63,901 nucleotides of DNA, filler included, from Bonamia ostreae (GCA_040357525.1; 45 parts of 45 records of this genome joined end to end with filler, not necessarily neighbours in it), one strand, 5' to 3'; counted from the first letter of the whole stretch, positions 3,089 through 63,805 are shown. The notes: generated by a model from the letters alone, not told the origin. A program made the numbers and translations.

Positions 3089-4105
3089 GACAAAAAGCAA
3101 ATCGCTAGAACGTTAAAAGAAGAAGCGAAAAACTGCCAAAAATTAATTTTGTGGTTGGACTGCGACAGAGAAGGCGAAAACATTGCATTCGAGGTCATTG
3201 ATATTTGCTTAGCCGCAAATCCAAAACTGAACATCAAAAGAGCAAAATTTTCCGCATTGATTCCAAGGTATCCGCGGATACAATTTATAACAATAAAATA
3301 TCTCTTTTAATAAATCGAATTTGTAACAGCGATTCGTAAATTAATGTACAAAAAATAAAGAGACATTCATTTTGCTATATCACATTTAACGGAGCCGTCT
3401 AAAGAGCTCAGTGAATCGGTTGAAGCCAGAATGGAAGTCGATTTGAGAGTCGGCTCTGCGTTCACTCGATTTTTAACTGATAAGTTACAAAACAGGTTTA
3501 GTGGTTTGGACCAGAGAGTAATAAGTTACGGTTTCTAAAAAATCAAAATAGGTCCATGTCAGTTTCCAACTTTGGGCTTCGTAGTGAGACAATTTTGGAA
3601 AATCAAAAATTTTGTTTCGGAAAAATTTTGGTTTATCAAAATGGCTATTCAACATGAAAATCGTTTTTAACAAATTTTATAAAAGCGATTTTCAGTAAAA
3701 CAAAAATTTTATTGCAATTGAAATGTGCTAAGTAAATATTATTAACATAAAAATTAAAGTGGAGAGATTTGATTAAATTTTATTGACCAGAAAAATTATT
3801 GCCATTAAATGCAAATTGACGTTGCTAAAATTTTGCAAATTCTAATTTTTCACACACAATTTTTAAAAAGAACAAATTGTTTTCAATTGGAAAAGGCGAA
3901 AACTATTTGATCACGCGATTGCATTTGTAATTTTTGAAATGCTTTTTGATAATCCGACAGCGTCAATTATTTCCGTCGAAAGAAAGCCTGTGACAAAATA
4001 GTTTTTAACATAAGATTTAATAGCAAGCCGTTACCTTTGACGACGGTCGAGCTACAAAAACTTTCCGCAATATATTTGAAGATATCCTCCAAAAAAACAA
4101 TGGAT
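3089..4105 (+). CDS. TOP3A: DNA topoisomerase III alpha, internal fragment (protist); exons 3089-3267, 3361-3530, 3552-3662, 3871-4000, 4024-4105
   Basis: Spliced translation gives [18 protein letters not shown] (Toprim), [42 protein letters not shown] and [12 protein letters not shown]. The ORF track misses it because of short introns. Confidence 0.95.
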
Positions 4106-5914
4106 GTTTTTGGCAAAATTATTACAACGAAAAACATTAAATTGCAAACTCTTTAATATTAAAATCGTAATATTTTAATAAACAAAAANNNNNNNNNNNN
4201 NNNNNNNNNNNNNNNNNNNNNNNNNNNNNNNNTTAATTAATTAANNNNNNNNNNNNNNNNNNNNNNNNNNNNNNNNNNNNNNNNNNNNATTTGATTACCC
4301 GTGCTGGTCAGCTCGTCATAATTTCGCATAGCTACAATGTATATATGCATTTATCTGTATCAACGCAAGAATTAACCCAAACTTCAATGGATTTGTCATC
4401 CTATTTACACATAAAACTGGCTATTTTTCATATAGATTTTCCACATGCAAGACTCGTTTAAATTCTTCTTATCACGATCAGGGTTAATAGTAAACTTTAT
4501 ATGAAATGTAAATATTTTCTTCTTGAACGTTCACTTTACATGTACTTTAAAGAGGAAAGTGGGTACATGTATATTGCTATGGTGGCAAATACGTTTTGAG
4601 TTGATGCATTGAATCAGTTGTACCGTGTGCATTATGATATTAGTACACCACATACATGTACAGATATGTGTGACAGGAAACGTCCTTTCGTTATTTTACA
4701 CCCTTAAGTTATCTGTGAACTGTTGAAATTTATTTTTTGCTGAGCGCTCCACCTTCTCACAGTATTGTGGATATAGCAGTAAACGAATAAAACAAAGCAA
4801 ATGCGAAGATCCTAGATTAAGCTAAATAACATTAATTTTAAATGATACAATTCGGTGTAAATAAAGAGTTTGTGAATTGGCATGGTAACTTACTTCAGTC
4901 TAGATATTAAGGAATACAAAATTACGCCGAGATTAATTTTCTTCAATTAATATAAATACCTTTAAACATACCCTGTGGTTGCTGTTGCATCAATTTATAA
5001 GCTTCTTTTGCGCTGAAAGATAAAAATGGATTCTTTTTACAGTAACTCCAGGTATACAGACACTTCGTCACGTTTGTTTGTTCTCCAATACAAAAGGACA
5101 TCAATATTAAACTAGTATATTGTTATAGGTTTATATACTAAACTTTCTAATGCTACATTCAAGGTTTTGTTTTGCCTTGTATTGTAATTATATATTGTTT
5201 TGAATATAACTATTGATCAGTCTTTAGATAATAACGAATTTGTCTTTTTATTAGGTATTCAATGTATAATGAAGGATAATGAAAACAAATTGAAGGGCTT
5301 AAATCAACGAATTCGGTAGGTAGGTATGTTTGGATTTTACATGAATACAGTATGACCTTTATTCACTTACTATGTGAATTCATTACAACGTTGTGCGTCC
5401 ATTTCTGAATAATGTATGTGATACTTGTCCGTACTGTTGCATCCATACAGTTTACTGCTCTGCTTCACCTGCTCTACATATGTACTATTGAGGAAAACAA
5501 AATCATTTAATAGTACATGTTAAGATTTTCTAAGATACAATACATTTTCAATGTATGATCAACAGCAATTAACAATTTATCTTAATAACAAACGTCTCCA
5601 TCGTCAACTTCTCTTATNNNNNNNNNNNNNNNNNNNNNNNNNNNNNNNNNNNNNNNNNNNNTTAATTAATTAANNNNNNNNNNNNNNNNNNNNNNNNNNN
5701 NNNNNNNNNNNNNNNNNTATATATTTTTACGCTTAAGGACAAATGACATTTCCAAATACTTGGACACATGCTATGCATGCATTTCATTAATATTCAATTA
5801 TTATGCTTTCAACTTTCCCGAAATATCTATACTTCTCATGCCAAATACTGGTATGATTATTGTTACTGTATTTCTCTGTAATTAAAGGAATTGGTCTATC
5901 CTCCATTGATTGTT

Positions 5915-6017
5915 AACCGCCGCAGCGTTTGCTCCGTATCCCGAAAGTCAGGGTTCGAATTCCAGCCGCGACAGACGTCTGCATAGGAGTGAACATGTTT
6001 TCGAGAGGGACGTTAAA
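5915..6017 (+). mobile_element. Truncated tRNA-derived SINE (host)
   Basis: B-box GGTTCGAATTCC followed by AGCCGCGACAGAC and a 3' end ...TTTCGAGAGGGACGTTAAA resembling the other SINE copies in this window; internally deleted. Confidence 0.55.
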
Positions 6018-6282
6018 GAAGATATAATATATCCGTTGTTTTTGGTTCGGGGTATTAATCTTACCGAAAAATCGCAATGTCGTAGTCTGTAAATACTTTC
6101 TTGATTATTTACGTTTTTGTTGATTTGTCTCTCAGTGCATTTCAGCTTATTGAATCTAATTCATTACAGTGTCATTTCTGAATAGCTCAATTATGCTCAA
6201 ATGCTTTAAATCTAAATGCTGATTTTCTAGAACATTGCTGTGATGAAAGTAAATAATTTTGAGTTACATTGTCAACTTATAG

Positions 6283-6493
6283 AGAAGCCCATGCAAGGCA
6301 TCTAGAACAACGTTGAGGTATACGATGGCATGCCCAACGAACCAATCAGCGCTGGAAGAAAGAAGAAATGCCTTGAAGTGTGAAGTTGAATCTCAAAACT
6401 GTACAGATCCAACTAATCTTAAATATCACTGCGTGATGAATGAATATGCAAACCATCTTGTTGAAGTGTGCGCAATTGCAACAAAAATAGTGG
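6283..6493 (+). CDS. Exon of a Cys-rich uncharacterised bivalve multigene-family protein
   Basis: Bounded by TATAG and GTGAG. Encodes CPTNQSALEERRNALKC...QNC...YHCVMNEYANHLVEVCA..IVG, a Cys/YHC/EVC pattern I recognise from oyster uncharacterised proteins. Confidence 0.65.
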
Positions 6494-62440: not shown

Positions 62441-62585
62441 CTAATTATTTTGTCAGAATGAAAATTACTGTTATTTTTGAACACGNNNNNNNNNNNNNNN
62501 NNNNNNNNNNNNNNNNNNNNNNNNNNNNNTTAATTAATTAANNNNNNNNNNNNNNNNNNNNNNNNNNNNNNNNNNNNNNNNNNNN

Positions 62586-63178
62586 AAGCAAAAAACGCCG
62601 TCAATGATCTTGAAAATGGATTTTTCTAATCTGAACTCAATATCAACGACTCCAGTTGTCACTGTTCGGCTATGAAAAACGTCTTCCTTCGAAGGAACAT
62701 AACCCTCTTCGGCGATGAAATCGATTCGGTCCAAAAAGTATTCTGCACAATCCAAAAGCTGATACCGCCAACTATTTTCAAACGTGCACATAAATCCTTT
62801 ATCGGACCTCCAGAAGAGCTTCACCAGCTCAGCTGTCTCCTTAGAGAGTTGGCGCGTAGCAGGAGTCTCGAGAAGGGCGCGTTTCGCGTAATCCTTCGCG
62901 GGGTCGGTGCGCGTCCCTTCCACTTCGAGCTCGTAGAGACGATCAGACCATCGGAGGATGGTCTTGACGCATTCGAGTGTGTTCTCCACCACACACATCC
63001 GAAATTTTTTGCGCTCTTCGATGGGATAACCGTGTTGGAACCGGTTCACCATCTGCTTGATGAAGGTGCTCTTCCCGCTTTCACCCGGCCCCAGCAGAAG
63101 CAGTCGGTACACTGATCGTGGGTGTCTAAATTCTTCGTTTCGATCGCTCGAAGTAATGCTGCTGAACTCGCATCCCAT
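62586..63178 (-). CDS. Heterotrimeric G-protein alpha subunit, 5' part (protist)
   Basis: MGC lipidation start, LLLLGPGESGKSTFIKQM (G1), helical domain with YQLLDCAEYFLD and YVPSKEDV, switch I RTVTTGV, then FKIID before the contig end. Confidence 0.95.
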
Positions 63179-63300
63179 TTTGAATTTTTATCAGGTTTTA
63201 TTTAAGCTAAATAACGTGAACCTTAATTTAAGCTTTGAAAGTAAAAGTTGGGTTTGGATAAAGTTAGCAAAATATACCGAAACAGCGTGTTTAACGAAGA

Positions 63301-63805
63301 ATGCAAAAAATACCGCAAAAAATGCCGCAACGAAAAACGAGTGGAAAAGAAGAAAACAAGCAGAAAGAAAGAAAGCCGATTGTTTGGGATGAACCGGGAG
63401 AGGGGAGCAGGTACATGTTGATGGGTTGGCTTTTTAATTTTGAAGAAGGCTTAGAGATGGTGGTCCCGTATTTTTACGAGTTCAAATCTTTTGCGAAGAG
63501 GAGATGGTTTGGCAGAACAGTTGAAGACGTGTTTGAAGCCGAATTTTTTAATTTCCGAAAAGAAAATTTTGTTTGAACAATTTAAATTTCGTCTCTAAAA
63601 ATGAAGGATAAACAGATCGAAAACAAAGAAATCAGAATTAACGATCGAATTGTTGAAGGAAATTACAAATTTAAGGACAACGACAGATTGTCTCATCGAT
63701 TGCATTATCATGAAAATCCTGTCCTGTTTAATTTTGAAATTCAAAGAACAAGCGATGTCAAAATCATCAAAGAAAACGACGATTATTTTGCAGTTGTAAA
63801 ACCTT
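63301..63805 (+). CDS. RPUSD2: RluA-family pseudouridine synthase (RPUSD2/Rib2/Pus9-like), 5' part (protist); intron 63571-63606
   Basis: GLEMVVPYFYEFKSFAKRRWFGRTVEDVFEAEF, KDNDRLSHRLHYHENPV and IIKENDDYFAVVKP match the RPUSD2 N-terminus (GLRkV.PY...f.ty.KgRW.g...vF..EF; H.HEpPV; vdKP). Confidence 0.9.

Follow-up and report, generated by a model that had tools for sequence, protein, structure and literature searches.

How does a spliceosome find its introns when their 5′ ends depart from the sequence that U1 small nuclear RNA (snRNA) canonically reads? The question is raised by a window of 63,901 bases (the whole stretch of DNA analysed here) taken from the assembly of Bonamia ostreae (GCA_040357525.1), a parasite of flat oysters that belongs to the haplosporidians (Rhizaria, Endomyxa, Ascetosporea). 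A preliminary description of this window listed 16 protist introns and proposed for them a divergent splice-site code, with GTT donors, AAG acceptors and either altered U1/U6 pairing or recognition mainly by length and AU-richness. Our analysis of 25 introns in the window makes it likely, on the evidence of their sequences and placement, that they are genuine spliceosomal introns of the GT-AG type whose donors follow a GTTT consensus particular to this lineage.

To our knowledge, few lineages possess a 5′ splice-site consensus that canonical U1 is unable to pair with. If true, a GUUU consensus in a rhizarian would provide an independent test of the co-evolution of splice sites and snRNAs after intron loss, and would show how little sequence a spliceosome requires. 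Bonamia shares its class with the mikrocytids, for which the published account describes introns of 16-17 nucleotides (nt) and no detectable U1.

Window and intron sets

The window is not a single locus. It consists of 45 contigs of 1316-1330 bp placed in order of decreasing size, with joins made of 44 Ns, a 12-base AT-only spacer carrying stops in all frames and another 44 Ns (e.g. 1331-1430); internal runs of ten Ns are also present in three contigs, and the window holds 3,902 Ns in 91 runs. Principal component analysis of trinucleotides divides the contigs into 15 with a positive first component (PC1), forming an AT-rich cluster that starts at positions 1, 2860, 8574, 12856, 14282, 17132, 18557, 19982, 22830, 24254, 27102, 44164, 55504, 61170 and 62586, and 30 with a negative PC1. 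The AT-rich contigs have a G+C content (GC) of 0.25-0.40 and a CpG observed/expected ratio of 1.03-1.87, and every gene that the preliminary description called protist sits on them. Two of these contigs encode proteins 100% identical to B. ostreae entries, confirming the protist as the intron-bearing organism: an exon of the topoisomerase gene matches the 157-residue 'DNA topoisomerase [Bonamia ostreae]' (P0121) in NCBI/UniRef, and an exon on contig 61170-62485 matches 'hypothetical protein MHBO_003523, partial [Bonamia ostreae]' (P0122) over 166 residues.

The 30 negative-PC1 contigs look like animal host DNA and carry animal-type features such as an hAT transposase dimerisation domain and an Ig I-set domain. 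In the few examples inspected, these host-like contigs show the GTAAGT donors and TTTCAG-type acceptors that had been ascribed to host exons of the same window; since the window is made of 45 joined contigs, however, protist and host exons lie on separate contigs of a mixed assembly and not at the same locus. Reading the DNA with the ciliate code (table 6) was uninformative, as it opens frames everywhere in AT-rich DNA; the verified exons are read in the standard code.

Genes were identified through Pfam (Toprim/Topoisom_bac, ABC1, DRMBL, Pkinase, Peptidase_C50 and G-alpha), and introns were considered supported when backed by homologue colinearity, deposited gene models or paralogue alignment. 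This supported set holds 16 introns: four in TOP3, four in COQ8, two in SNM1, the first of a pseudokinase gene, those of two paralogues, two in MHBO_003523 and one more counted with them. Nine further introns rest on reading frame alone, bringing the total to 25. An intron-aware gene model was also used, and its antisense or otherwise unsupported introns (n = 40) served as a control for model bias. For ten of the 16 supported donors there is no in-frame alternative within 18 nt on either side, and for one more the sole alternative is itself a GTT donor. The termini are GT and AG in all 16 supported introns and in all 25 overall.

All 16 introns of the preliminary description, which span from the first TOP3 donor at 3268 to the acceptor of a gene labelled RPUSD2 at 63606, could be placed again at GT..AG boundaries. 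With the separase candidate and the second intron of the gene labelled SCYL included, its counts are reproduced exactly (14 GTT and two GTA donors; a single +5G, in RPUSD2; nine AAG, six TAG and one CAG acceptors). Independent support was obtained for 13 of them, namely those of TOP3 (four), COQ8 (four) and SNM1 (two), the first of SCYL and the two in the paralogues; of the other three, RPUSD2 is weak, the second SCYL intron has frame only and the separase donor could not be checked.

The donor signal

The donor carries a signal that extends beyond GT. In the supported set, T occupies +3 in 14 of 16 introns and +4 in the same number, against an expectation of 0.353 from the T frequency of intron interiors (p = 2.5e-5 for each position), and a weaker excess is seen for T at +6 (10/16, same expectation, p = 0.024). 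Donors reading GTTT make up 12 of 16 supported introns versus 21.9% of the 1641 GT sites on the 15 AT-rich contigs (p = 9e-6), and GTT donors 14 of 16 versus 48.1% (p = 0.0013). When the nine frame-only introns are added, GTT is found in 22 of 25 and GTTT in 17 of 25, compared with 20/40 and 11/40 among the control introns of the gene model (Fisher p = 0.003 and 0.002, respectively). The enrichment over both the GT-site background and the control introns indicates that the donor signal is real. The bias toward T at +3 is thus more than composition predicts. The GTT motif of the preliminary description missed an equally strong T at +4, and the motif is GTTT.

Other positions that contribute to a canonical donor are at background. 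G at +5 occurs once in 16 (0.072 expected, not significant), in agreement with the earlier claim of donors without +5G, and an exonic G at -1, seen in five of 16, is likewise at background. A purine at +3 is seen in two of 16. Further into the intron, the supported set has T at +7 in eight of 16, A or T at +7 in 15 of 16 and A at +8 in nine of 16. Several donors, among them those at 3663, 4001, 62314 (minus strand) and 744, extend to GTTTTTAA or GTTTCTAA, and do so in 23-nt and 208-nt introns alike. Such donors may belong to a longer 5′ motif, or they may provide an early in-frame stop as a guard against intron retention.

Acceptors, pyrimidine tract and branch point

The acceptor presents a different picture. 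Position -3 of the supported introns is A in ten, T in five, C in one and G in none; the frequency of A (10/16) is that expected from intron composition (0.48, p = 0.32), AAG accounts for 41.8% of NAG sites on the 15 contigs, and pyrimidines amount to 6/16. The AAG acceptors put forward as part of the code therefore reflect a lost preference for a pyrimidine at -3 and not a new preference. The two remaining observations on the 3′ end hold: the pyrimidine fraction at -15 to -4 (0.43) does not differ significantly from that of the interior (0.445), as befits a weak or absent pyrimidine tract, and no shared branch motif is visible among the 25 introns, where A and T frequencies at -10 to -4 follow composition.

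Among supported introns, all six long ones, of 63 nt or more, end in an A-run followed by AAG, versus four of ten tiny ones (p = 0.034), and the A fraction at -10 to -3 is 0.71 in the former and 0.46 in the latter. The trend weakens when frame-only introns are included (7/9 vs 7/16, p = 0.21), and this preference of long introns is only a hint.

Intron length and composition

The preliminary description invoked recognition by length and AU-richness while giving no lengths. The 25 introns measure 19, 21, 21, 22, 23, 23, 23, 25, 25, 25, 25, 31, 31, 36, 40, 41, 63, 68, 93, 106, 118, 123, 140, 208 and 246 nt, so that many introns of 19-25 nt stand beside others of 63-246 nt. Eleven are of 25 nt or less, 16 of 41 nt or less and nine of 63-246 nt, in a sample too small to define modes, and the GTTT donor is common to the tiny and the long classes. 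For comparison, a narrow spread of lengths below about 30 nt characterises the ultra-short intron lineages, such as mikrocytids, heterotrich ciliates, the nucleomorph, myxobolids and dicyemids. Composition sets the introns apart from their surroundings, with a GC of 0.183 versus 0.380 in verified exons totalling 5,769 nt. In these exons GTTT occurs 47 times, and 59 decoy pairs of GTTT and AG enclose segments of 19-41 nt, of which only four reach 74% A+T; because so few exonic decoys attain this richness, GTTT, A+U richness and length together are almost enough to distinguish the tiny introns.

Placement of the supported introns

The topoisomerase gene TOP3 contains four introns on the plus strand. 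The first (3268..3360, 93 nt, GTATCC..AAG) separates a Toprim exon ending at residue 184 of TOP3A (PDB 4cgy_A) from an exon starting at about residue 186, with one split codon between them, and is the sole in-frame GT/AG pair within 18 nt on either side. The other three, at 3531..3551 (21 nt, GTTTCT..TAG), 3663..3870 (208 nt, GTTTTT..AAG; a unique in-frame pair) and 4001..4023 (23 nt, GTTTTT..TAG), are all spliced out in P0121, and the exons cover Pfam Topoisom_bac positions 3-34, 42-76, a 42-residue exon and 122-150, in that order. The P0121 model itself looks imperfect: on its contig (2860-4188), it starts at an internal methionine and omits the Toprim exon together with the 93-nt intron.

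The five minus-strand exons of COQ8 lie end to end on a hidden Markov model (HMM) of 60 homologues, at positions 168-270, 269-306, 308-334, 336-370 and 370-421, and the chosen junctions yield 392.2 bits versus 368.0-381.6 for every in-frame alternative. Intron 1 (25130..25152, 23 nt, GTTCAA..TAG) is the best-scoring junction. For intron 2 (25000..25018, 19 nt, GTTAAT..TAG), the alternative is a 25-nt form with a GTCCAA donor (25000-25024), which lowers the score to 381.6 bits. The alternative to intron 3 (24887..24909, 23 nt, GTTTTT..TAG) reaches 372.6 bits, and those to intron 4 (24760..24780, 21 nt, GTTTAT..CAG) reach 380.3 and 375.6 bits. The best of 508 matches to COQ8 was at most 60% identical, and at those lengths the collection includes no COQ8 from a close relative. 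At its far end the COQ8 homology (24254-24620, minus strand) stops at HMM position 421, just past the conserved exon ending at about 24608. The frame continues only as far as a stop codon, and the remaining 350 nt or so are AT-rich and show no further match. The gene could be truncated, a long intron could continue beyond the contig edge, or the assembly could be broken at this point.

In SNM1, three plus-strand exons follow the order of human SNM1A (chain 5nzw_A) to within about two residues, abutting at approximately residues 125-126 and 207. They are separated by introns at 23584..23614 (31 nt, GTTTCT..AAG; a unique in-frame pair) and 23861..23885 (25 nt, GTTTCA..AAG), and the exon following the latter corresponds to DRMBL positions 3-60. 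The gene that the preliminary description named SCYL encodes a pseudokinase, and its first intron (55911..56016, plus strand, 106 nt, GTATTT..AAG) has a single in-frame donor. The exon upstream of it ends with Pfam Pkinase positions 94-139, and positions 161-263 are covered by the exon after it, starting at residue 34, a colinearity that is generic to kinases.

Paralogue alignment places the introns of two genes for small secreted proteins, at 18115..18154 in paralogue A (minus strand, 40 nt, GTTTCT..AAG) and 17555..17622 in paralogue B (minus strand, 68 nt, GTTTTA..AAG). The two proteins align with a score of 95, against 33.9 +/- 6.9 for shuffles, and the introns fall in an aligned codon, both in phase 1. 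These paralogues (17331-18290, minus strand), earlier referred to as GPI paralogs, are tandem genes for proteins of about 100-116 residues, whose N-terminus resembles a signal peptide and whose C-terminus is hydrophobic, and neither has a Pfam match. Outside the list of the preliminary description, the minus-strand gene MHBO_003523 has two introns, 62175..62314 (140 nt, GTTTTT..AAG) and 61674..61796 (123 nt, GTTTTG..AAG), and here the intron-aware model equals P0122 across both junctions.

One of the nine frame-only introns, on the minus strand of contig 19982-21305 (20610..20640, 31 nt, GTTTGT..AAG; intron-aware model score 144.9), shares its donor with the library protein P0123. The latter takes an acceptor 4 nt downstream and ends after three residues, whereas the 31-nt form keeps about 195 further codons open. 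Gene finders that expect canonical sites and a minimum intron length are likely to mis-model the genes of this parasite; P0121, without its Toprim exon, and P0123, cut short by a wrongly chosen acceptor, are examples.

Alternative explanations

The most serious challenge to a GTTT consensus is that the motif could be an artefact of composition and placement, GTT and AAG being merely the commonest GTN and NAG triplets of an A/T-rich genome in which introns were located by eye or with a model that looks for open frames. The background does lean this way, given that GTT makes up 48.1% of the 1641 GT sites and AAG 41.8% of NAG sites, that the counts of A at -3 (10/16) and G at +5 (1/16) fit intron composition, and that half of the unsupported model introns (20/40) start with GTT. 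We nonetheless consider it improbable, for composition does not account for GTTT in 12 of 16 donors against 21.9% (p = 9e-6) or for +4T in 14 of 16 against 0.353, both GTTT and GTT exceed their frequency in the 40 control introns (Fisher p = 0.002 and 0.003), and frame and homology fix most donors independently of what stands at +3. It is less credible still that the interruptions are not spliced introns at all, but assembly indels, pseudogene decay or programmed frameshifts. The assembly is fragmented, with contigs of about 1.3 kb, and COQ8 homology halts at HMM position 421, beyond which a search for more exons found none; against this, each of the 16 supported interruptions starts with GT and ends with AG, and their removal restores both frame and residue-level colinearity, their GC is 18% compared with 38% in the flanks, and deposited models annotate interruptions as introns. 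An animal source, such as a dicyemid or a myxozoan bearing the published 'GTa / AG only' signal, would explain introns of 19-25 nt, as ultra-short introns with reduced motifs have been published for myxobolids and Dicyema (PMC13644364). We reject it, in view of the two contigs that encode proteins 100% identical to B. ostreae entries and of a reported animal signal of GTa where 14 of 16 donors here read GTT.

Several points nevertheless weigh against a lineage-specific GTTT consensus. The Ascetosporea genome paper states that B. ostreae has 'canonical introns', about two per mRNA. The sample is small and DNA-only, with 16 supported introns and 25 in total from about nine genes, and P0121, P0122 and P0123 are gene predictions and not transcripts, the last of them differing at one acceptor by 4 nt. 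Three sense-strand introns of the gene model were left out as having no support (3031-3088, GTACTT; 17734-17937, GTGATT; 22960-23148, GTCAAA); none of them is GTT and, were they real, GTT would come down to 22 of 28. Finally, among the 15 AT-rich contigs, only two match proteins that bear the name of B. ostreae and a third matches a library protein, the rest having been assigned by composition. The same genome paper reports gene models obtained with funannotate trained on transcriptome reads, and places an enrichment of splicing-gene losses at the ancestor of paramyxids and mikrocytids.

Comparison with known systems and proposed mechanism

Set against the canonical U2-type intron (GURAGU ... 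Yn-YAG), the Bonamia introns share the GT/AG termini (25/25) and the location in conserved genes, and differ in having T instead of a purine at +3 and in showing +5G, -1G, a -3 pyrimidine and the pyrimidine tract only at background. The closest donor known to us from the literature is that of Entamoeba, where GUUUGU(U) donors are matched by a U1 bearing ACAAAC in place of the ACUUAC that canonical U1 presents to GUAAGU (bioRxiv 10.1101/2022.06.08.495308). As described there, Entamoeba likewise has U at +3 and +4 in place of A and A (14 of 16 at each position in Bonamia), giving a donor with which canonical U1 could not pair, and it too is a parasitic protist of low intron density with A/U-rich introns. 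In contrast to Bonamia, however, where +5G is found in 1/16, +6T in 10/16 and +7T in 8/16, the +5G and +6U of Entamoeba are reported as near-invariant (GUUUGU in 87.9-89.5%). The two lineages are unrelated, Amoebozoa on one side and Rhizaria on the other, and the resemblance in Bonamia rests on donor sequence.

Shortness likens the introns of Bonamia to those of the mikrocytids of its own class. Mikrocytos and Paramikrocytos are described as having introns of 16-17 nt with a conserved sequence, and U2, U4 and U6 as the only snRNAs identified (PMC10245619). Bonamia and the mikrocytids have in common extremely short introns and a spliceosome that may do without U1 pairing, but all mikrocytid introns are reported as 16 or 17 nt long, whereas those of Bonamia range from 19 to 246 nt. 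The ultra-short introns of myxobolids and Dicyema, with 'GTa' as the 5′ signal and a bare AG at the other end (PMC13644364), resemble those of Bonamia in a median length in the 20s, the lack of a pyrimidine tract, a 3′ signal reduced to AG and a weak A-rich stretch upstream of it; they differ in GTa as opposed to GTTT and in belonging to animals and not to a rhizarian protist. The literature searched, outside which lie subscription journals and supplements, contained no description of splice motifs in Bonamia or other haplosporidians. To call this an undescribed system, as the preliminary description did, is nevertheless too strong, for Entamoeba, with its GUUUGU donors and compensating U1, and the mikrocytids, with introns of 16-17 nt, provide precedents in the publications cited above. 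Judged from its sequence signals, the Bonamia pattern is a lineage-specific change of splice signals of a known sort and not a categorically new system.

In the interpretation that we favour, the 5′ splice site of B. ostreae has moved away from GURAGU and now reads GUUU, after which come a weak Y and U, with neither exonic -1G nor +5G. The 3′ end is simply an AG that follows any base but G, and it lacks both a pyrimidine preference at -3 and a pyrimidine tract. The introns stand out by an A+U content of about 82%, compared with 62% in exons, and appear to fall into a tiny class of 19-41 nt, most often 21-25, and a tail of longer ones of 63-246 nt. The 5′ end of canonical U1 (ACUUAC) could pair with little beyond G+1 and U+2 of GUUU, and 5′ recognition would therefore have to rely on something else. 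By analogy with Entamoeba, the most likely route would be a U1 carrying A's opposite +3 and +4, although we would give it somewhat less than an even chance. Only slightly less probable is a U1-independent or U1-weak recognition. According to the Entamoeba preprint (bioRxiv 10.1101/2022.06.08.495308), the ACAGA box of U6 pairs with donor positions +2 to +6 and U at +3 and +4 improves this pairing; in a U1-weak route, U6 would gain a U+3-G wobble and a U+4-A pair, aided by the A+U contrast and the shortness of the introns (intron definition), and the 3′ AG would be picked by its distance from an A-rich branch region and not by U2AF reading a pyrimidine tract. The window contains no snRNA detectable with Rfam at the gathering score, and at E <= 1 it returns only a chance-level microRNA match.

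The same preprint presents two related amoebozoan lineages as clear cases of snRNAs changed to match their splice sites. We put forward, tentatively and with about one chance in three in mind, that Bonamia, and perhaps all haplosporidians, may represent a second, independent instance of co-evolution between splice sites and snRNAs outside Archamoebae, reached either through a U1 rewritten for GUUU or through the abandonment of U1 pairing. A single machinery would then handle introns from 19 to 250 nt on the basis of GUUU, A+U content and a bare AG and, because Bonamia and the mikrocytids share a class, could constitute an intermediate stage toward mikrocytid introns.

Further introns and neighbouring genes

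The frame-only introns are scattered over several of the AT-rich contigs. A gene on the plus strand of the first contig has four of them, at 383..407 (25 nt, GTAACT..TAG), 537..599 (63 nt, GTTTAC..CAG), 744..861 (118 nt, GTTTTT..TAG) and 1108..1132 (25 nt, GTTTAA..TAG). On the minus strand, the gene of the contig starting at 8574 has one at 8911..9156 (246 nt, GTTATA..AAG), for which a GTCAAA donor 6 nt upstream is an alternative, and contig 19982-21305 has a second intron at 20353..20393 (41 nt, GTTAAA..AAG). Upstream of its supported intron, paralogue A has another at 18183..18207 (minus strand, 25 nt, GTTGAT..CAG) that joins a signal-peptide exon to the remaining protein, and the second intron of the pseudokinase gene lies at 56564..56585 (plus strand, 22 nt, GTTTTT..AAG).

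The intron of the gene labelled RPUSD2 (63571..63606, plus strand, 36 nt, GTTTGA..AAG) joins two frames across an in-frame stop. The start of its downstream exon has a weak S4 match (positions 21-48, E = 0.089), beyond which the gene has neither a Pfam nor a PDB match, and the search for a further intron after 63805 produced no convincing frame. In the separase gene (44468..44497, plus strand), the acceptor TAG at 44497 could be served by a donor at 44468 (GTTTTT, 30 nt) or at 44424 (GTTTTG, 74 nt). The downstream exon begins at position 381 of the 395 of Peptidase_C50 and so covers the last 15 positions alone; upstream of it the contig has no separase homology, only a tandem repeat, and the profile up to position 380 is missing there. 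With a repeat upstream, the acceptor alone is trustworthy and the donor is not checkable.

Tandem repeats occupy 44164-44480, with a unit of about 60 nt directly upstream of this last separase exon, and 55504-55733, at the start of the pseudokinase contig. Head-to-head with the gene labelled RPUSD2, on a Bonamia-type contig whose GC of 0.397 is the highest of the AT-rich set, lies a gene for a heterotrimeric G-protein alpha subunit (62588-63187, minus strand; Pfam G-alpha, E = 3e-37), which has an N-terminal MGC and consists of an uninterrupted exon of 200 codons.

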